Shown here one piece after another: positions 15,945 to 38,227 of a DNA stretch of 64,000 bases (within the stretch, counting starts at the first letter, position 1; the number at the start of each line of letters is the position of its first letter). Under the pieces are notes generated by a model. That model ran no database searches and was not told the DNA's origin. It worked only from the letters and a program-made list of their open reading frames with translations. Origin of the DNA: Candidatus Saccharimonadales bacterium (GTDB lineage Bacteria > Patescibacteriota > Saccharimonadia > Saccharimonadales > JAXHNE01); NCBI GenBank assembly GCA_041600755.1, contig JBFIJL010000002.1, positions 144,850-208,849 on the forward strand. Reading direction: 5' to 3'. The position numbers and the translations under genes are program-made.

Positions 15945-16532
15945 CTATTCAGAAGTCGTGAATTCAAAAACTGGAATATCGCCAGCCGCTTCTGCATCTT
16001 CGAAATAGCTCAAGTATTCTTCGGCACGGTAAAGACCGCCATCGCCAAACATGCGAGCTGCAACACCGTTTACTTCAAATTCGACTGTTGCTATCACGCT
16101 CGATGGGTCAGTAAATGCATTGTCAATAATTTGATCGCAAGACTGGTCGTCAGCAACATCCAAATGTTCGCTAATGTGACGCAAGCGGGTTAGTTTATCC
16201 TGTGCAATTGTGCCACCATGAGTTCGAGTGGTCACTACATCTGCCTCTATTGATAGCACCTTGCCACGAGATGTCGTATCTTGGCAGCCCAGCTTCACCC
16301 CTGCAACAACATCAGCATCAAAAGTATCGTCAACAAGACCTGCAACGAAAAAATCAGGCTCCGTCGGAAACTCTTCATTTAATCCACCAGATGCAGCAAA
16401 GACACCAAAGCCAATTGCTCCCGCCGCCGCAATGGAGCCTGCAATTAGCGACGCCTTACTTCTGCGTCTTCCGTTTTGATCGTACTGATCATGTGAGTCA
16501 TGCTCAGGATATAAATCATAGACCTTGCTCAT
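15945..16532 (-). CDS. hypothetical membrane-anchored protein
   Basis: A 195-aa ORF with one TM segment. TATAAT and GGAG lie upstream on the minus strand. Confidence 0.5.
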   Translation of the reverse strand: MSKVYDLYPEHDSHDQYDQNGRRRSKASLIAGSIAAAGAIGFGVFAASGGLNEEFPTEPDFFVAGLVDDTFDADVVAGVKLGCQDTTSRGKVLSIEADVVTTRTHGGTIAQDKLTRLRHISEHLDVADDQSCDQIIDNAFTDPSSVIATVEFEVNGVAARMFGDGGLYRAEEYLSYFEDAEAAGDIPVFEFTTSE

Positions 16533-16743
16533 GAGCTAACTCCTTGTTTACTTCTATTACGATTATACTATATTTTAGACTATAAATCAATCTATCTAAG
16601 TGCCTGTCAGCAATAGAGTGCCATCCATCCACATTCACTCTTTATGGCCCCGCAGACTCTTAGATCCCTGAAGTTTGCGAATTTTGAGTCTTTCGACTTT
16701 TTGGCTTTTTTAATTCTCAAGTGGCTCTTGCCAATAAGAATAA

Positions 16744-17121
16744 TCAGTTAAGCGCCACCACCAGGAATACAATCGCCAGAACTAAAGAAATCGGCACCAT
16801 AACGGCGCGCTCCTTCTTGCTTCTGGATATAAGATTCATGGCGACACCTAGCATGAAATAGCCCGTAAAAGCCCACATGCCATTATTCAAAACACTCTGA
16901 TTGGTGACGACATTCACTAAATCTGCTTTTGAAACCAAAAAAGAAGCGAAAACTCCGTACAAAGCAATTGCCAACACACTGCCGAGCCTCAGCTTAACCG
17001 GCAGCACTTTGTGTTGGCCGCCCCAAGCAAACTCTCCATAGGGTCTACCCATTACCAGTAAAATCTGAAATACCGTTAGTCCCAACAGTATAAACAGTCC
17101 AGCGTACGTCAATATATTCAT
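16744..17121 (-). CDS. small integral membrane protein
   Basis: 125 aa with four predicted hydrophobic helices. Confidence 0.5.
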   Translation of the reverse strand: MNILTYAGLFILLGLTVFQILLVMGRPYGEFAWGGQHKVLPVKLRLGSVLAIALYGVFASFLVSKADLVNVVTNQSVLNNGMWAFTGYFMLGVAMNLISRSKKERAVMVPISLVLAIVFLVVALN

Positions 17122-17266
17122 CCCACTAATGATACATCAATAAATTTGTTGGGTTCGGCTCAGCCATAAACAATAATGCCAACTATCATCACAGACTGAA
17201 GTGCCAGCCAAAGTGTAATTTTGATTCTTTCTTTAAATGGAGACACTACTCACAAAAATATTTTTC

Positions 17267-17289
17267 GTGGTGATCCCGAGGGGAATCGA
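17267..17289. repeat. orphan copy of the tRNA-Glu 3' end (att-like, left island boundary)
   Basis: GTGGTGATCCCGAGGGGAATCGA is identical to 21857-21879 and in the same orientation. Confidence 0.85.
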
Positions 17290-17494
17290 CCTGCATTCTG
17301 CAGGCCCGAAACTTCATTCTTGGCAACAAGTTGCCAGAAGAAGGTTTCCTTGCGAAATGCCGCTGGCATTCCTCACCCAAATAATGCTCCAGCTCTCGTT
17401 GCATCAATAAATCTCCAATACCGATCGTAGTTTCAAACAATCGCACAACCTGGTACAGGGCAGCCTCAATAGCAGACCACAACGCGCGCAAACT

Positions 17495-17956
17495 TTACGA
17501 CCGAATGTTGGCTATGCGCTCTTTTGCATGTGCCAACATATCCACTTTAAGGCCGTCATAAAGCTTGTCTTTATCACTCCTTTGATTAGAAATAGGCTCT
17601 ATGTTTTTAATAACTCGTCGATCTGGTTTTGCGTTTATAAATTGTGTAATCATATCTTCAACTTTATTTGGACTGGTTGTGCGACTAGCTACTATTATGT
17701 TCGCTTCAAGCAGCCTCTCTACACTCTGCAGAACACGAGTATCGCTCATTAGGATTATGAGCTTCAGCGGTTCAGCTAACTTAACTAGTTCATTATCTGA
17801 CAGCTTCTCAGCCGCTTCGTGATTAACGAGCAGTACTTCACATCCGTCTGATACCCTGTAGCCAAGTGGGTCGGCAAAAGTAGAAACTGTGTAATTTTGC
17901 TTGTGGAGAAAATATTCCGCTAAATAATTTTCATTTTCAATTATAATAATGTTCAT
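17495..17956 (-). CDS. receiver-like (pseudo-receiver) protein
   Basis: Receiver-like beta-alpha pattern (MNIIIIENEN.., EVLLVNHE, LIILMSD). Asn sits where the phospho-accepting Asp is expected, by eye. Confidence 0.45.
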   Translation of the reverse strand: MNIIIIENENYLAEYFLHKQNYTVSTFADPLGYRVSDGCEVLLVNHEAAEKLSDNELVKLAEPLKLIILMSDTRVLQSVERLLEANIIVASRTTSPNKVEDMITQFINAKPDRRVIKNIEPISNQRSDKDKLYDGLKVDMLAHAKERIANIRS

Positions 17957-17982
17957 AAGTCGTATTATACGTAAGGATATTC

Positions 17983-19704
17983 ATGAAAGCCAAAGATTAT
18001 AAAAACTGGATACTCCACTATGCTAAAAAGCAATGGTATCTAATTGCCGCATCCTCAATCATCGCCTTAGGTATGGTTGGGCTTCAGCTAGCCTCTCCGA
18101 TTCCATTAAAAATTCTTATCGATAATGTATTCGGTGCAGAGAAGCTAACCTGGTTATTTTCAGGCTCAAAATCAGGTAAAGACTTGCTTCCATATGTGGC
18201 GGCGTCTTTCATTGGAATTGTGCTAGTAAGAGAACTTTACTCTGTATTCCAACAATACACCTTTAGATTATTCTCTCAGCTGGTTGATAAACGGGTACTG
18301 AGAGACATCTATAAGCGAATCACACAAATTCCAGAGCACAGTACGTCCAAAAAGAGTCCTGGTGAATACATATTTGCAGCAACGAATGAAAGCCAGCAAA
18401 TTTCTCAATTAATATTAGTTAGCCTCGTCACCATAATCGGCTCAATTTTAACAATAATTGCAATCGGCACATTACTATTCAAGCAAGATAAAAACCTCAC
18501 GCTGCTTTCTTTGTCAGTGTTCATACCTGCAATAATTCTAGTCGCATTCGTATCAAGAAAACTGGATAAAGTATCTCAAAAAACCGAAGACACCCACTCT
18601 AAACTATTCGATATCATTAGTGAGGGAATCCACAAGATGCGACTGATACACTTATTTGTTTTAGAAAAAACACAGCTAAAACGGATTGAATCTATGGTCG
18701 CAATACGCAACAAGAACGCAAGATCCCAGACAATGACCCAATCAACCCTGAGTGGCTTGGATGAGATTATATTAGGTGTTTCAACTGCAATTGTTGTTTA
18801 CGTTGGAGGTGTACGCGTTTTTGACGGAGCACTAAGCCTGGGGGACCTCCTTTTGTTCATGGCTTATCTTGGCTTTCTATACGATCCTTTTGCCGCTATA
18901 GTCAGCAGCATCGGGGAGTCGCTCTCTCAAATGTCCGCAATCCGACAAGCTTTCGAAACAACTCAGTACACCGAGCAGGCACCTCAATCAGACAAACCAG
19001 ATCTCGTAATAAGCAAGGGGAGCGTTGAGATAGACGGCCTGACTGTTATGCGCGGTCAGACTACAATCCTTGACTCTATTAATCTAGAGATAAAGCCGGG
19101 CGAATTTATCGCAATAATTGGCCCAAGCGGTTCAGGAAAATCCACCCTGATTAATGCACTCCTAAGGTTTACCGACATGACTGCAGGGCGTATAAAAATA
19201 GATGGTCAGGATATCATGCAGGTAAACGAGCAGAGTCTTAGAAAATCGATTAGTGTCGTCGACCAAGAGCCTGACCTGCTGTCCTTAAGTATCGACGAGA
19301 ATATTGCCATCCACGACATAGAGCGACCGAACCACCTGCCCGACAGCATGAAAGGAGCCTTGTTTGCCGAGCTACAGGATTTTGTAGAAGATCGAGAAAA
19401 TAGATATCAGTCACAGATAAATCCCGACTCCGTTAGTGGAGGTCAACGACAGAGGCTAGGTCTCGCGCGTGCATACTATAAAGATTCACTAGTTTACATC
19501 ATGGATGAACCGACTAGTGCACTCGACGACCATACAAAAACCACAATCGCAAGAAACATCGTTGAGTACCTTGCTGGCACGTCCCGAATTGTCGTTACCC
19601 ACGATCTAGGCCTGATAAAATACGCTGACAGAGTCCTAATGTGCAAAGATAAGACCCTGGTGGACATAACTGGCTCAACCAATATCGAGGAACTCCTGAA
19701 ATGA
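17983..19704 (+). CDS. ABC exporter, fused permease and ATPase (MsbA/type I exporter architecture)
   Basis: Six-TM N-terminal half. Walker A is GPSGSGKST, the signature is VSGGQRQRLGLARA, and Walker B is LVYIMDEPTSALD. Confidence 0.9.
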   Translation: MKAKDYKNWILHYAKKQWYLIAASSIIALGMVGLQLASPIPLKILIDNVFGAEKLTWLFSGSKSGKDLLPYVAASFIGIVLVRELYSVFQQYTFRLFSQLVDKRVLRDIYKRITQIPEHSTSKKSPGEYIFAATNESQQISQLILVSLVTIIGSILTIIAIGTLLFKQDKNLTLLSLSVFIPAIILVAFVSRKLDKVSQKTEDTHSKLFDIISEGIHKMRLIHLFVLEKTQLKRIESMVAIRNKNARSQTMTQSTLSGLDEIILGVSTAIVVYVGGVRVFDGALSLGDLLLFMAYLGFLYDPFAAIVSSIGESLSQMSAIRQAFETTQYTEQAPQSDKPDLVISKGSVEIDGLTVMRGQTTILDSINLEIKPGEFIAIIGPSGSGKSTLINALLRFTDMTAGRIKIDGQDIMQVNEQSLRKSISVVDQEPDLLSLSIDENIAIHDIERPNHLPDSMKGALFAELQDFVEDRENRYQSQINPDSVSGGQRQRLGLARAYYKDSLVYIMDEPTSALDDHTKTTIARNIVEYLAGTSRIVVTHDLGLIKYADRVLMCKDKTLVDITGSTNIEELLK

Positions 19705-20015
19705 ACCGCATTTTTGCAGTTTTTGCGAACTTTATTCATGCCCTAATCATGCTGGGGTACGGAGTATCTCCATTCTTTCTATCCATATATTGGGTGCTTG
19801 CGTTCTTTTTAATAATCTATATACATCAAATTATTTTTAGTGGTTGTCTAATTACAATTATCCAGCATCGATTAAATTTACTGGATAAAGATCGTGATTT
19901 TGTTGATAACTTTATCGTCACTGTTTTTAAGGTCAAATTAAAAGAGGAGCAGTACGAGTTGATTGGTGAATCACTTTTACTTGCTCCTCTAATTTTAGCT
20001 ATTTTTATTAGCTAA
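19701..20015 (+). CDS. small integral membrane protein
   Basis: 104 aa and hydrophobic. An ATGA overlap couples it to the ABC gene stop. Confidence 0.5.
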   Translation: MNRIFAVFANFIHALIMLGYGVSPFFLSIYWVLAFFLIIYIHQIIFSGCLITIIQHRLNLLDKDRDFVDNFIVTVFKVKLKEEQYELIGESLLLAPLILAIFIS

Positions 20016-20106
20016 GAATTTTTTATCTTCTATTTCTTGGAGAACCGCGACGTGGTCGTCTTGCATAACCCATGGTGTTTCCTTTTTTTAATTTATACTT
20101 TTTAAA

Positions 20107-20943
20107 TTATATCATGAGCTCTTTTAAGATGTAATCCACCGATCTAACCTCTTTTGCGTATGTAATTCCATTATATAATTTGGCGTACTGATACACCGTG
20201 CCAAGACTTTGTCCTCTTGACTTTGCTGTAAGATAGTCGCTGGCTGCGTCAACACTTTCTTCGTCGGTGTTAGGATAACTATACTTAACCTGCATTTTGC
20301 CTGTTGAAGTCACGAAAGGCAGCCATGAAAGACTTGATTCGATTAATCTTACAATCTTTGGTCGATTTATAAGCTCAACTATCAAAATTGCACTAAGTGT
20401 ATCTTTTAATATTTGAGGCTTCTCAAGATCTGATATATAGGATAGGATTTTCTTATTTTTATTTACATGATGAAAAATAAGCTCCCTATACTTTTCATCG
20501 GAGTTGTATGCATTTGCAATCGGCTTCTCTTTAGAAAGAAGCCCAACCAATACAATAAAAATTAACACCACTAGCCAGTATTCATATAAGTGGAACGGGG
20601 TAATGGCTGCTAGGGAGGCTAACGCTAGCGACACGGCTAAACTCATAATTATTTTACTATTCGAAAGTATTCCGCGCTGTTCGCTGAGGCATGCAAAGGT
20701 AACTCTAGTAAACCAAAGTGAAGCAACTCCACCGATGACAATCAATCCTCCAGTTTGCGAGTCATATATATCTGAAAACAAGCTTACGAAGAGCAGGACA
20801 GCGATTACATCACCCACAATTAAAGCGCTTTTCATAAAACCATAGAATAATAGCCTATTTATATTCATAAACGAATAATCCTGCTGTCGGAGTGCAATCA
20901 AAAGTACGAAGATGCACTGAGTTAATAAAGGAATCGCTATCAC
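20107..20943 (-). CDS. multi-TM protein with C-terminal SLT-like (lytic transglycosylase-like) domain
   Basis: The C-terminus shows ES (LIESSL), GKMQV and LYNG motifs. Their order and spacing match the ES / GLMQ / AYNxG motifs of family-1 lytic transglycosylases, by eye only. Confidence 0.45.
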   Translation of the reverse strand: MIAIPLLTQCIFVLLIALRQQDYSFMNINRLLFYGFMKSALIVGDVIAVLLFVSLFSDIYDSQTGGLIVIGGVASLWFTRVTFACLSEQRGILSNSKIIMSLAVSLALASLAAITPFHLYEYWLVVLIFIVLVGLLSKEKPIANAYNSDEKYRELIFHHVNKNKKILSYISDLEKPQILKDTLSAILIVELINRPKIVRLIESSLSWLPFVTSTGKMQVKYSYPNTDEESVDAASDYLTAKSRGQSLGTVYQYAKLYNGITYAKEVRSVDYILKELMI

Positions 20944-20944
20944 T

Positions 20945-21154
20945 TCAAACCCAGCAATCTATTATTTTTGACCATATCGCCCAACCTGATCCATAAGATA
21001 TATGCTCAGGTATTGCGCTTAACTTATTCCTGACAGGGATATTCTCCTTTAGGAGTATTCGAATTACTATTATCAAGGTAGGAACTTTTAATAAATTAGA
21101 GCATCCGATGTTTAATGCCGAATTATTGATCTTTTTTTCGTTCTCTAAATTCAA
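20945..21154 (-). CDS. small one-TM protein (holin-like by size and position only)
   Basis: A 69-aa ORF lying between the peptidase and the SLT-like gene, adjacent to the next start. Confidence 0.3.
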   Translation of the reverse strand: MNLENEKKINNSALNIGCSNLLKVPTLIIVIRILLKENIPVRNKLSAIPEHISYGSGWAIWSKIIDCWV

Positions 21155-21170
21155 AGAATATATCCTTTAG

Positions 21171-21851
21171 CTATAGTCGCGCTAATCTATTTTGTTTGTA
21201 TAATTCATCGCTATAACGCCAGTGCCAAGACTCATGCTCCATGCCGACTTTGTTATTCTCAGGATAAGAATTTACGAAACCAAACCTTTTAGCTTCCATG
21301 CTTAGCCACTTCTTAACATCGGAATCTAACTCTGTCCTGTGATGCTGCCCGACATCTATTGCCAAATATTCCATAGAATTGTGCTCTGATTCTCCGGGAA
21401 GCTTTACGAGCCGTTTCGCTTGGTTAATATTAAAATTTTGCAAGTATACTTCTTTTAGGAATAGCATTCCTTGGTGAGCGGGCGTCCTATACCCAGATAA
21501 AATATAAATTTGTTTTCCAGTATTTTTTCGTAACTCAATGGCCATTTCATTAAAAGCAGATCTACAATTGACAGTGACTTTAATGAATCTTTTCGCTTTT
21601 ACGGAAAAAGGGCGGGCTGTTACTAATCGCTCGCTGGATGGCAAGGAGCTATCCAGCGATGTGCATTTTTCTTCATTCAATTCCCATATACTGTATAGAC
21701 AGTTAACCTGATCGATGTTTAGTAGGCCAAATAACTGACTGAATGTGAGTTCGCAAAGTCTAAAGCGCCAATAATGCAACTGAAAAACATTTAGTACGCC
21801 CGGAATGATGAGCTCTGACCCTGCAGGTGTTTTCATTTTCACATCTTTCAT
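21171..21851 (-). CDS. VanY-type D-Ala-D-Ala carboxypeptidase (peptidase M15B)
   Basis: SGYRTPAHQ, SEHNSMEYLAIDV and HESWHWRY match the VanY/M15 zinc-peptidase motifs. Confidence 0.8.
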   Translation of the reverse strand: MKDVKMKTPAGSELIIPGVLNVFQLHYWRFRLCELTFSQLFGLLNIDQVNCLYSIWELNEEKCTSLDSSLPSSERLVTARPFSVKAKRFIKVTVNCRSAFNEMAIELRKNTGKQIYILSGYRTPAHQGMLFLKEVYLQNFNINQAKRLVKLPGESEHNSMEYLAIDVGQHHRTELDSDVKKWLSMEAKRFGFVNSYPENNKVGMEHESWHWRYSDELYKQNRLARL

Positions 21852-21856
21852 TTACA

Positions 21857-21879
21857 GTGGTGATCCCGAGGGGAATCGA
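21857..21879. repeat. att-like repeat, right copy (T-arm to CCA of tRNA-Glu plus 1 nt)
   Basis: Identical to 17267-17289. Confidence 0.85.
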
Positions 21880-21932
21880 ACCCCTATTGCCAGGATGAGA
21901 ACCTGGTGTCCTAACCGTTAGACGACGGGACC
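21858..21932 (-). tRNA. tRNA-Glu (anticodon CTC), encoded CCA
   Basis: The minus strand reads GGTCCCG..CCAGG-TTCTCAT-CCTGG..AGGGGTTCGATTCCCCT-CGGGATC-ACCA. The cloverleaf pairs, with one G.U in the acceptor stem. Confidence 0.9.
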
Positions 21933-22131
21933 ATGCTTAGGATGTATCTGGCAAGCCAAATGATCCTAAGCTCGTTGTTTGGCACAACTCGGAAATAGTA
22001 GCATAACAGGGGCCGTCTGTCGATAGAGCCTTGGTGGTATTTCGTCTGTATTTCTCGTATACTCTAACCATAAGCAAATCGATAAATGTGGGATTCATGC
22101 AACAGATTAAAACTAAGTCGGCGGAGATTGG

Positions 22132-34961: not shown

Positions 34962-35996
34962 ATGGCTGACCAGCAAGCAACTTTACAGACAAAAGCAATC
35001 GTAAACGACATCTTAAACACGATAGATCGTGACCGAGAGCGCGAAATCATCTCGCGACGTTTTGGACTCTTCGATCGAAAAGAAACTTTGGAACAAATTG
35101 GTGAACTGCTAGGAATTACACGCGAACGAGTTCGTCAGCTCGAAAAAGCTATAGTTGCTAGACTCAAGGCACAGGCCAGTGAAGGGGACTTACCCCATGT
35201 TGCTGACGTACAGCAGCGTATTATTAAGCAACTCCAGCTCAGTGGCAACGTAGCGCGTGTCAGCGCACTAACAGAAGCTATCGCAGACGACACAAGCAAG
35301 ATAGGGCAGTCACGTGTTGCATTTCTAGCTCAACTAAGCCCACGGCTCAGCTATGTCGATGAAAACGATCACTTCCACCACTCTGTTGCAATTCGCGAAG
35401 TGCATGATGAAAAATCTGTAAAAGACAACGTCAAAAAAATCATTGACGCCATCAAGGGCATTGGTGAGCCAACGGAAATTAAGCCAATTGCGGAATCTGC
35501 AGGACATGATGACCATGTGCACGCCGCAGCGCTAGCTAGCACCAGCAAGAAACTTGCAACACTCAATAACCGTTGGGGACTCATAAAATGGCCAATGGTT
35601 AATCCGAAAAATATTCGCGATAAAATCTATGTCATCTTGCACGACACCGGCAAGCACATGCACTTCAACGAAATTGCCGAAGCGATTAAGGACAGTGACT
35701 TTAAGCGAAAAGAAGTTACTACGCAGGCGATCCACAATGAACTCATCAAAGATAAGCGCTTCGTACTCATCGGTCGTGGCATCTATGCCTTAAAAGAATG
35801 GGGCTTCAAAAAGGGAACTGTTTCTGACGTAATTATAGATGTTCTCCAAAAGGCAGGTGAGCCACTTCACCGCGACGATATCGTTCGCGAGGTCCTCAAG
35901 AGCCGTAAAGTTAAAGAAACGACTATCCTCCTTAACCTCCAGGGCAAAGACCAGTTCAAGCGCGTTGCAAAAGCCACCTACGCTCTCGCAGAATAA
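34962..35996 (+). CDS. sigma-70 region-4-like HTH protein with two C-terminal HARE-HTH-like domains
   Basis: ETLEQIGELLGITRERVRQLEKAIVARLK matches sigma70_r4. FNEIAEAI..DKRFVLIGRGIYALKEWGF and a second similar segment resemble HARE-HTH. The promoter is TTGACA plus TGtTATAAA. Confidence 0.65.
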   Translation: MADQQATLQTKAIVNDILNTIDRDREREIISRRFGLFDRKETLEQIGELLGITRERVRQLEKAIVARLKAQASEGDLPHVADVQQRIIKQLQLSGNVARVSALTEAIADDTSKIGQSRVAFLAQLSPRLSYVDENDHFHHSVAIREVHDEKSVKDNVKKIIDAIKGIGEPTEIKPIAESAGHDDHVHAAALASTSKKLATLNNRWGLIKWPMVNPKNIRDKIYVILHDTGKHMHFNEIAEAIKDSDFKRKEVTTQAIHNELIKDKRFVLIGRGIYALKEWGFKKGTVSDVIIDVLQKAGEPLHRDDIVREVLKSRKVKETTILLNLQGKDQFKRVAKATYALAE

Positions 35997-36013: not shown

Positions 36014-36610
36014 ATGTACGCACACGATTCTATTTTGCGCGGCGAAGCGGGCGATACGACTGTTTCGGTTGCAAAAGCTCTATTAGCGGCCGATCCTGGA
36101 ACTTATCATGCCGCAATAACACCTTCCGGTCTTTCTTCTGATGCGTTAGATGTTCTTGATGACGGGGTTCTTAACAGTACACCACACTGTACTAGCCACG
36201 AGCAAAACTTACTAAAATCTGAAAAATTCGCTGCACTAATTGCCTTCATGGTTCAATCGGAGGAAGAATCTCTTACTACCAGCATCAGAGCAAAAAATAC
36301 TTCAATTCATCCACATATAGACCTAACCACAATCTTCAGACATCTTGGCTGGAGCCTAAGAACTGACAAAATTCCCGCTTCGCGAACGTTTCATGTACTT
36401 AATCATACCGAGAATAACCCTAGACCGACCTTACCGGAGCTATACAACGTAGTTGAGAAGGCTAAACAATCAGAAACATTCGCCCCGCTTACTCCAGTAG
36501 AGCAGAGACGCGGAGACATAGTCTTATTTAATAACGGACATCAACCAACAGTACATGCAGTCCAAGGGTATGGCAGGGCAATCGTTGGCCTTGCTGCTCT
36601 AATAAATTAG
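36014..36610 (+). CDS. hypothetical protein
   Basis: A 198-aa ORF. GDIVLF..GH..HAV is faintly NlpC/P60-like but not convincing. Confidence 0.4.
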   Translation: MYAHDSILRGEAGDTTVSVAKALLAADPGTYHAAITPSGLSSDALDVLDDGVLNSTPHCTSHEQNLLKSEKFAALIAFMVQSEEESLTTSIRAKNTSIHPHIDLTTIFRHLGWSLRTDKIPASRTFHVLNHTENNPRPTLPELYNVVEKAKQSETFAPLTPVEQRRGDIVLFNNGHQPTVHAVQGYGRAIVGLAALIN

Positions 36611-36826
36611 ATCTACAAATAATAGACAAAATACGAACAGAACGCTCATTGGACACAAAGTTACAAATCATGGGCCTATAAGTGGAATTACGTAATTTCA
36701 GGTCCAAGATTGTACTGAAGCCAGTAAGTGGGGGTCATAATTTAATTAGTAAGCAGTACTCCAAGAATCGTCTAGAAAATTAGAGGGTAGGCAGCAAAGC
36801 AGAGTAGCAATCCTGAAATAGACATG

Positions 36827-36854
36827 ACGTCGCACAATGTATATTTTGCGACGC
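36827..36854. other. dif-like site (candidate Xer recombination site)
   Basis: ACGTCGCACAA-TGTATA-TTTTGCGACGC. The arms are 10/11-bp inverted repeats around a 6-bp centre identical to that of E. coli dif. It lies in the convergent strand-switch gap. Confidence 0.35.
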
Positions 36855-37282
36855 AACTTAGACAGTAATAGTTGAGTATAGGGTCATCCCCATACAGGGG
36901 ACTTTTTAATAAATTCACTATCTCTTTATGCATTATGCATAGTTACTCAACTGCACTCTCTGTTGCTGATTACGCTCAGGACGACTTGGTGTATGAATTG
37001 CATCACTTAGAACTTATCCACAGAAATCCGTGAAAACATTTGCTTTTTCACGCACTTTGTTTTATTTATTTGCATTTCCCCGCTTTTGTATTCATATATG
37101 TTTTTGACTTTTGCCCTGCTTTGTCGTTTTGTATAGTTTTTTTGCCATGCAACGATCGTCAAAGCAATATGAACATTTTACGAACACGAAGGGGAACGGA
37201 GGAGTGTGGGGGTGTTTTATGTTTTACGGGCGCCATCGCTCACATAGATGCGATTGCTTAAATTAACTTGAAAGCTTTTCGC

Positions 37283-38227
37283 TTATTTATAAAATACCTT
37301 ACCGTCTACTCTGACATCAATGTATTCATTTACTGCACTCCCCCGCTCAGATACATATGAAATAGCAGACAGTAAAGATCCTATTTGCCTCCTTGAGTCT
37401 GATGTTGTGTCGAGCTTCGCGAAGTACGGCTTTCCAGAGAACTGTATGCGAAGCTCATTGGGAGTCACTCGTGGCAAATACACACTCTTGACCTCCAAAG
37501 AAGTAAGTGCAAGCTGATCACTTATATCGAGCATGAATTGAGTAGTCTCCTCTGTTACTACGCGATTGCCAACTGATACTTCAGTGGCTGTCTGGTCTTC
37601 AATTAGCGGCAAATCGACTAGATCGTTAAGCTCATTATCGTCTAGTGAAATATCAGCAATGTTTGCTAATACTGTGCCGGTAGAATCAATTAGATAAATC
37701 CCCTTTGTGGTTTGAAGTTTAATTACAGGTGACCGCGGAGTAATTGATACAATCGGTCGATGACTGATGAGTGGAATGCTCACAACCACATCACCAAATT
37801 CAGGGAATTGCTTAAGAATTTCAGCTGAAACTGCGTTTGAGTTCATGAACAATTTAGAGCGATTAACAACCGATTGTTTGAGAATTGCTGAGATGCCGTC
37901 CAGATAGACTGATTCTTCACGTAGCAATACGGCCGACGAAGCTGTGTTCTGGGAGGGCGTAATAACCTTAATGCGTGGCGTTGTCTCCAGCCACAAGACA
38001 TAACCGATACAGCCAACCGAGAGAGCCGTTAGTAATCCAAAAAAAACCCTTTCAAAACGATTTTTTGAATCTTTCGGCTTCTTCTCTCCTCGAGAAGCAG
38101 CTCGCGATGAGTCTCTGTCGCGAGCTGCATGATGCGAGAATGTTTGAGCGCGTAAATTATTAGAATTTCTCGACCTATGTAGCAAGCTCTGCGTTTCGCT
38201 GGATTGTTTTTTTCTAAAAAACTTCAC
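37283..38227 (-). CDS. ftsQ: cell-division protein FtsQ-like (POTRA-containing)
   Basis: A basic N-terminus, one TM segment and an extracytoplasmic POTRA-like region. It sits downstream of murG in the dcw cluster. Confidence 0.65.
   Translation of the reverse strand: MKFFRKKQSSETQSLLHRSRNSNNLRAQTFSHHAARDRDSSRAASRGEKKPKDSKNRFERVFFGLLTALSVGCIGYVLWLETTPRIKVITPSQNTASSAVLLREESVYLDGISAILKQSVVNRSKLFMNSNAVSAEILKQFPEFGDVVVSIPLISHRPIVSITPRSPVIKLQTTKGIYLIDSTGTVLANIADISLDDNELNDLVDLPLIEDQTATEVSVGNRVVTEETTQFMLDISDQLALTSLEVKSVYLPRVTPNELRIQFSGKPYFAKLDTTSDSRRQIGSLLSAISYVSERGSAVNEYIDVRVDGKVFYK

Follow-up and report, generated by a model that had tools for sequence, protein, structure and literature searches.

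A predicted dif-type Xer recombination site in a Saccharibacterial genome, displaced from the skew-defined replication terminus

When the genes on either side of a short non-coding gap face one another, and the gap contains a palindrome that resembles a recombination site, does the palindrome mark the place where replication forks meet, or does it serve recombination only? This question is raised by a 28-bp element, ACGTCGCACAATGTATATTTTGCGACGC, which was read directly at positions 36827-36854 (no strand assigned) of the window, that is, of the whole 64-kb stretch of DNA that was analysed. The preliminary description of this DNA had seen in the element both a dif-like Xer target, with a near-symmetry suited to a single-recombinase system, and a candidate replication terminus; the first part of that reading stands, whereas the second does not. 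The element is not a terminus marker in the window but a dif-type site that is displaced from the skew-defined terminus. From its sequence and its conservation we predict, with a probability of roughly 75%, that it is the chromosomal Xer recombination site (dif) of a Saccharibacterium with a single Xer recombinase.

The element, whose palindromic sequence, TGTATA centre and coordinates had been given exactly, consists of a left arm, ACGTCGCACAA (36827-36837), the centre TGTATA (36838-36843), and a right arm, TTTTGCGACGC (36844-36854). The two 11-bp arms pair at 9 of 11 positions across the 6-bp centre, and an inverted-repeat search returns an 11-nt repeat with 91% complementarity at the same place, so that the layout is that of dif, with imperfect inverted 11-bp arms on either side of a 6-bp centre. 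The dif criterion of Kono et al. (2011; PMC3025954) requires that, when positions 7-12 are paired with 17-22, more than four of the pairs be complementary, and the element has five of six, with a mismatch only at positions 9/20 (C/T). Within the element, the 24-bp core GTCGCACAATGTATATTTTGCGAC (36829-36852, no strand assigned) is asymmetric, with C opposed to T at an inner arm position and with a non-palindromic centre. The dif site of Escherichia coli, which is the substrate of XerC/XerD together with FtsK, likewise has 28 bp (GGTGCGCATAA-TGTATA-TTATGTTAAAT). The resemblance claimed between the two sites is accurate in its numbers: they share the 11-6-11 layout and all six bases of the centre, the arms match at 6/11 and 5/11 positions, and 17 of 28 positions are identical overall, including inner arm bases (CGCA.AA / TT.TG). 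One copy of the site occurs in the window when up to three mismatches are allowed, and no second copy of the 24-bp core was found there at up to eight mismatches. The symmetry by itself is no evidence for the site, because the window contains 13 inverted repeats of this 11-6-11 layout in which 9 or more of the 11 positions match, compared with 9.0 expected from Markov-1 simulations. Since a palindrome of such quality is not rare by chance, the significance of this one rests on comparison with other genomes.

For this comparison, genomes were searched, one per species, with the degenerate 22-mer pattern TCGCANAATRTAYATTNTGCGA, for which about one chance match is expected by estimate. The pattern matched at least 120 assemblies, each match in a different assembly and with one site apiece, and nearly all of the matches listed come from Candidatus Saccharibacteria, Saccharimonadales or other Patescibacteria. 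The records CP064960.1, CP023991.1 and OY970327.1, which are labelled as complete or as a whole chromosome, also contain one site each. The motif, which had been expected to be single-copy, is so both in the window and, once per assembly, in at least 120 related assemblies. Among the matches listed, the identical asymmetric 22-mer is present, in either orientation, at 98 of 121 loci, and the G and C that flank it are 100% conserved in the 97 loci that could be oriented, so that conservation among related genomes, a feature by which dif sites are judged, is evident here. The inner-arm position is mismatched at 108 of the 121 loci listed, and retention of this mismatch indicates that it is the asymmetry that is maintained, not base pairing. 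No description of a dif site from Saccharibacteria or other Patescibacteria was found in the searchable literature.

The gap that contains the site extends over 672 bp (36611-37282), in agreement with the ~670 bp of non-coding DNA first reported, and separates a 198-aa ORF (36014-36610, +) from a 314-aa ORF (37283-38227, -). The reported flip in gene orientation is also borne out: among ORFs of at least 150 aa, 23 of 29 to the left of the site lie on the + strand, and 18 of 20 in the interval 37283-59723 lie on the - strand. To the left are found dprA, a 243-aa ORF, topA, a 344-aa protein and the 198-aa ORF, and to the right, on the minus strand, a short cell-division (dcw) cluster comprising rsmH, a 115-aa ORF, PBP, mraY, ftsW, murG and, as its last gene, the 314-aa ORF; the remainder of the window encodes housekeeping and signalling proteins. 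The 314-aa ORF, for which no Pfam or NCBIfam match was obtained, is the constant right-hand neighbour of the site, as its homologue ends 390-660 bp away in 78 of the 97 loci listed, and always on the same side and strand. The usual left-hand neighbour is the 344-aa protein (34962-35996, +), in which Pfam recognises sigma-70 region 4 and a HARE-HTH domain. Its homologue is located left of the site in 74 of the 97 loci listed, at a variable distance, with its end from 212 bp to more than 3.8 kb away. The 198-aa ORF that intervenes here gave zero tblastn matches in the 97 related loci and no family match, and the exact protein was found in one other public contig only, in which gene order and ORF lengths from dprA to rsmH equal those of the window. 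Because the distance on the left varies and the 198-aa ORF has no counterpart, the site has a variable slot on its left, which that ORF occupies in the window. In the cultivated Saccharibacterium Southlakia epibionticum ML1, this slot holds ten small non-core ORFs, with CRISPR-Cas9 and a VirD4-like gene further on (PMC10633639). When the Saccharibacterial loci listed are placed with the site in the orientation of the window, homologues of topA and of the 344-aa protein are always on the left and on the + strand, and homologues of the 314-aa ORF and murG always on the right and on the - strand. In Saccharibacteria, the site is thus always positioned between the topA/sigma-like block and the end of the dcw cluster, in one orientation.

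A link to Xer recombinases is provided by the 30 loci, among the matches listed, that lack Saccharibacterial synteny. At 10 of these 30, a gene for a Xer-family recombinase with the C-terminal motif ...RHSFAT...LGH...TTQIYTHV lies within 2 kb of the site, and at L016, L089 and L036 the recombinase gene starts within ~60 bp of it. The best NCBIfam models for the five of the ten recombinases that were tested are XerC, XerD or XerA, matched over the full length with E values of 1e-70 to 1e-75; those of L036 and L100 pass the XerA cut-off. The neighbours at the recombinase loci include gyrA, RNase Y and purB (adenylosuccinate lyase), and such housekeeping genes indicate that the Xer-adjacent loci are chromosomal modules; where both neighbours were called at these loci, the genes usually converge on the site. 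In the window, which reaches 36 kb to the left and 27 kb to the right of the site, no tyrosine recombinase, DnaA or DnaN was found, and a recombinase gene immediately beside the site is therefore a feature of other lineages and not of this locus. The absence of a Xer gene from the window bears neither way on the terminus question. S. epibionticum ML1 has one tyrosine recombinase, SEML1_0117 (PMC10633639, Tables S1/S2), the best structural matches of which are XerC and the transposon phenotype of which runs from non-essential to growth defect, and its FtsK, which is essential, contains a gamma domain (PMC10633639). The earlier suggestion of a single-recombinase system is thus supported by the near-symmetry of the site together with the one tyrosine recombinase in this relative's genome (PMC10633639), and that of a dif-like Xer target by conservation as a single copy per assembly, Xer genes within 2 kb in ten lineages, copies in phages (see below), and the XerC-like protein and FtsK of the relative.

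If the element is indeed the dif of a single-Xer Saccharibacterium, known Xer systems would lead one to expect that two copies of the one Xer tyrosine recombinase bind the near-identical 11-bp arms. In a chromosome dimer, two such sites would be synapsed at the septum, probably with the participation of FtsK, and strands would be exchanged where the 6-bp centre TGTATA meets the arms. The order of exchange may be set by the conserved asymmetry, namely the inner-arm C versus T and the non-palindromic centre.

The predicted system exhibits considerable similarities to that of E. coli, but there are also differences. In both, there is one site per chromosome, and FtsK with a gamma domain is found in a relative, S. 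epibionticum. However, the arms of the present site are near-identical, whereas those of E. coli dif are distinct for XerC and XerD; S. epibionticum encodes one Xer rather than two; and the site in the window lies off the GC-skew shift point, unlike E. coli dif. Xer systems with a single recombinase include XerS/difSL of streptococci and lactococci, XerH/difH of Helicobacter and Campylobacter, and XerA/dif of archaea (PMC2958812). One recombinase and an imperfect palindrome are common to these systems and to the one proposed here. As with XerS, XerH and crenarchaeal XerA, the site is found beside a xer gene in other Patescibacteria, and a xer-adjacent site also occurs in MAGs labelled Clostridia, Eubacteriales, Bacillota or archaeal; the conserved flanks recall those reported for Thermococcales dif. 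Unlike in the XerS, XerH and XerA modules, the Saccharibacterial xer gene is not adjacent to the site, as there is none in the 64 kb, and that of S. epibionticum, at 115 kb, is separate from the junction between the dcw cluster and the topA block, at 264 kb. In its sequence, the site resembles classical bacterial dif more closely than it does difSL or difH, and the adjacent recombinases of the other lineages fit the XerC, XerD and XerA models best, not XerS.

Four other explanations have to be weighed against this reading. The first, an improbable one, holds that the palindrome is an operator bound by some non-Xer transcription factor and that it overlaps the promoter of a ~50-nt RNA that ends at a hairpin at 36887-36907. 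A promoter-like match does span 36819-36847, with a -35-like TAGACA at 36819-36824 and a -10-like TATTTT inside the palindrome, and the weak -35-like hexamer coincides with an upstream flank, ATAGAC (36818-36823, +), which is conserved at 55-81% per position at offsets -12 to -7 in the 97 oriented loci listed. The hairpin itself, TCCCC-ATACA-GGGGA followed by CTTTTT (+ strand), was found by a consensus scan and is also predicted by RNA folding, and its CCCCT..AGGGG and T run are kept at +55 to +76 in the 97 loci listed. Besides this terminator-like hairpin, an ATAGWTG block and the ATAGAC flank also stand at fixed distances from the site in these 97 loci, and the 101-nt region gives a better fold than shuffled versions of it (z = -2.85). 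However, promoter-like matches are as frequent in the window as in shuffled sequence (3 found, 3.1 expected), the palindrome is far better conserved than the putative -35 or the body of the RNA, and no match to an Rfam family was obtained. Furthermore, the core occurs without those flanks beside Xer genes in other lineages and beside phage terminase genes. The hairpin, the DnaA-box-like element described next and the later elements of the gap are absent from the non-syntenic loci, and they therefore lie outside the core site.

Several of these other elements in the gap are conserved. A DnaA-box-like 9-mer, TTATCCACA (37014-37022, +), is part of the conserved non-coding DNA that separates the site from the FtsQ-like gene. 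Between +100 and +400 from the site, the motif TTWTNCACA was matched 96 times, without exception on this strand, versus 4 times elsewhere within 1.5 kb on either side, and TTWTCCACA is present at 82 of the 97 loci listed, some of which have two or three boxes. The 9-mer is associated with the site by its position, ~200 bp away, and its role is putative only. Directly after it comes a conserved inverted repeat, CGTGAAAAC-ATTTGC-TTTTTCACG (37029-37052, no strand assigned), which forms a pair of similar boxes. A replication origin, which the conserved 9-mer and the inverted pair of boxes ~200 bp from the site might suggest, was considered and rejected, because genes converge there, the skew does not change from - to +, and dnaA and dnaN are absent from the window, and because a closed Saccharibacterial genome has its origin between dnaN and dnaA (PMC6031116). 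Closer to the right-hand gene, conserved T-rich stretches containing TTGAC (TGTATAGTTTTTTT) are located at 37109-37143, and TGAACATTTTACGAACA, with the direct repeat GAACA-N6-GAACA, at 37170-37204 together with a G-rich GGGGA..GGAGG block. In the window the latter blocks precede the stop of the 314-aa ORF by ~80-110 bp, and in many related loci they are nearer to it. Neither the 37109-37143 nor the 37170-37204 blocks contain a conserved ORF or match Rfam, and they could be unannotated RNA or regulatory sites. A conserved small protein in the gap was also considered and rejected, as the apparent ORFs are conserved DNA translated in several frames. An Rfam 15 search of the window returned two tRNAs only at the gathering threshold, and nothing better than E = 4 in the gap.

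The reading as a replication terminus, in which forks meet at the site and genes converge on it for that reason, is very unlikely to be correct. It would be in keeping with the convergence of the genes and with the AT skew, which flips at the site, following gene orientation. In three large single-contig or complete records, the site is at 0.487, 0.466 and 0.504 of the length, which would suit both a dif site and a terminus, in so far as the record start, which may not be the origin, allows position to be read in this way. However, gene orientation and, with it, AT skew are all that changes at the site. GC skew is negative to the left and right of the site, and cumulative GC skew falls monotonically over all 64 kb, so that the change from + to - and the cumulative maximum of a terminus are not seen; the extremum that had been expected near 36.8 kb is found neither there nor anywhere else in the window.

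The composition of the genes tells against a terminus as well. When the coding-strand skew at third codon positions (GC3 skew) is computed separately for the two gene strands on either side of the site, its mean is -0.198 for + genes on the left (n = 23), +0.045 for - genes on the left (n = 6), +0.113 for - genes on the right (n = 21), and -0.187 for + genes on the right (n = 3). The difference between left + and right - genes is significant (p = 3.5e-8), and the skew follows the DNA strand regardless of side, minority-strand genes included. Were the site a terminus, the left + set and the right - set would both consist of leading-strand genes and ought to agree in skew; as they differ, the terminus reading fails. 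Strand composition of the same sign on both sides indicates instead that forks pass through the site. Because the top strand is C-rich throughout and a leading strand is usually G-rich, the forks would run from the dcw side through the site to the topA side, and the genes on the topA side are head-on to them.

Any skew shift point must lie outside the window, at a distance from the site of more than 36.8 kb on the left or of more than 27 kb on the right. Across 517 genomes, dif was reported to be separated from the skew shift point by at most 3% of genome length, which the present offset would exceed in a genome of ~1 Mb. The offset also counts against the dif reading, as do the skew of related loci and the map of S. 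epibionticum, both given next. Related loci agree with the window and not with a terminus: 40 of 52 have the same local skew signs, and the pooled top-strand skew of ~50 related 8-kb loci, which are not independent because most share flanking genes, is -0.23 on the left and -0.07 on the right. In Saccharibacteria, the skew is of the ordinary bidirectional kind and the origin is flanked by dnaN and dnaA (PMC6031116), which further argues against a terminus at a site without a skew change. The gene table of S. epibionticum starts at dnaA, and in it the dcw cluster ends at 263,648 on the + strand and is followed by the topA block on the - strand (PMC10633639); by these gene-table positions, the dcw/topA junction, at ~264 kb in a genome that exceeds 813 kb, is ~0.31 of the genome away from dnaA. 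ATP synthase genes of this species are on the + strand at 337-344 kb, and its replication and ribosomal genes are on the - strand from ~388 kb (PMC10633639), which suggests, on the basis of gene orientation only, that its forks meet beyond the junction. The most polar words in the window are A-rich and follow the coding strand, 64 kb being too short for a KOPS-like signal.

Copies of the core are also found in phages. Among IMG/VR viral contigs, 18 match the pattern (L122-L139), of which 17 are not Saccharibacterial chromosome, L129 being a chromosomal fragment. In eight contigs, the closest large ORF to the site (at least 330 aa, one per contig) was tested, and in all eight it is the large terminase subunit, the gene for which is ~0.25-1.7 kb from the core in these tailed phages. 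The phage site is flanked by small-terminase-like ORFs and is located either upstream of terS or between terS and terL. L131 carries the exact Saccharibacterial 24-mer, and most phage contigs have the arm arrangement of non-Saccharibacterial Patescibacteria. Described mobile elements that exploit Xer (IMEX) are mostly filamentous phages and genomic islands. The phage contigs resemble IMEX (CTX-phi) and plasmid Xer sites (cer, psi) in that mobile genomes carry a dif-type core of the host and that no Xer-type recombinase was found in the phage stretches examined; unlike IMEX, the carriers here are tailed phages with the site beside terS/terL. By analogy with these elements, phage copies of the host's dif-type core would fit use of the host recombinase, and they suggest a route to lysogeny or genome upkeep without an integrase of their own in phages of small-genome bacteria.

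These copies might lead one to think that the site is mainly an attachment or multimer-resolution site for mobile elements or phages, and that resolution of chromosome dimers is not its role, but to this reading we give little credence. Apart from the viral contigs that carry the core, it can draw on a Paceibacterota contig, L090, with terminase and portal homologues 2.6-5.6 kb from the site, and on the variable left slot, which is filled by the orphan 198-aa ORF here, by extra DNA of 0.2 to more than 3.8 kb at other loci and, in S. epibionticum, by the ten non-core ORFs followed by CRISPR-Cas9 and the VirD4-like gene. However, a near-invariant 24-bp intergenic sequence in more than 100 species requires a host function, the island is small or absent at most loci, and known elements of such a kind exploit a pre-existing dif. 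Apart from the viral contigs, L090 alone has phage genes near the site, none having been found in Saccharibacterial loci. Integration of islands that would leave a degenerate second site was considered and rejected, as no such copy was found beside any island above chance (7 matches at up to 7 mismatches, 6 expected).

The remaining alternative, a chance palindrome or an RNA/DNA hairpin such as an intrinsic terminator, has a negligible probability: although the window holds 13 comparable inverted repeats where 9 would be expected, and the palindrome could form a 7+3-bp hairpin, the site is invariant across the clade, its stem mismatch is kept at 108 of the 121 loci listed, no T run follows the stem on either strand, and the terminator scan, which picks out the GC-rich hairpin and directly following T run at 36887-36907, omits the 28-bp palindrome. 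A TGTATA centre would be expected among such repeats by chance at only roughly 13 x 2/4096, or ~0.006; given this centre a chance origin is unlikely, and given the conservation across genomes it is untenable.

The dif reading does not explain two further properties of the site: that it is offset from the skew-defined terminus, and that it occurs beside phage terminase genes. A tentative proposal, which we consider possible but rather doubtful, is that Saccharibacterial dif is uncoupled from the meeting point of the forks. Under this proposal, dif would be fixed at the dcw/topA junction, and the forks would run on for at least 37 kb (perhaps 80-100 kb in S. epibionticum, judged by gene orientation only) through conserved head-on core genes, while tailed phages would use the host's single Xer to integrate or to resolve multimers. 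If this is true, tailed phages of Patescibacteria would form a class of Xer-exploiting elements so far undescribed among tailed phages. The locus is, in any case, a test case for whether dif must lie where forks meet or only where the polarity of the chromosome converges. A defined site of 24-28 bp also provides a single-copy landmark, so far unannotated, for Saccharibacterial and Patescibacterial genomes. Cultivated Saccharibacteria are now transformable, and Xer-mediated excision of markers via the site is a possible genetic tool.

Finally, some minor observations on the rest of the window should be noted. Positions 1-36610 comprise at least 36 kb of core genes mostly on the + strand (gltX, der, pth, dprA, topA), the coding strands of which are C-rich at third codon positions; by composition these are lagging-strand (head-on) genes, and a conserved head-on block of that length is unusual. 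The same block occupies 270-325 kb in S. epibionticum, on the strand opposite to the dcw cluster (PMC10633639). At its N-terminus, the 344-aa protein carries sigma-70 region 4 alone, and the HARE-HTH domain, which is RNA polymerase delta-like, is further on. Its counterpart in S. epibionticum, assigned by gene order and length only, appears to be SEML1_0294, which is annotated as 'RpoS', essential and enriched in Patescibacteria (PMC10633639); sigma-70 region 4 combined with HARE-HTH is an unusual architecture for an essential transcription factor. In addition, a 28-nt imperfect palindrome, TAAAAAGCCCCATTTCTGGGACTCTTTA, occurs twice, at 2473-2500 and 2639-2666, 166 bp apart, and its second copy directly adjoins a tRNA-Leu (2669-2753). 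The stretch 16000-22000 has a low GC content (0.38-0.43, compared with ~0.46 elsewhere) and several minority-strand ORFs without a family match, and it may be acquired DNA.
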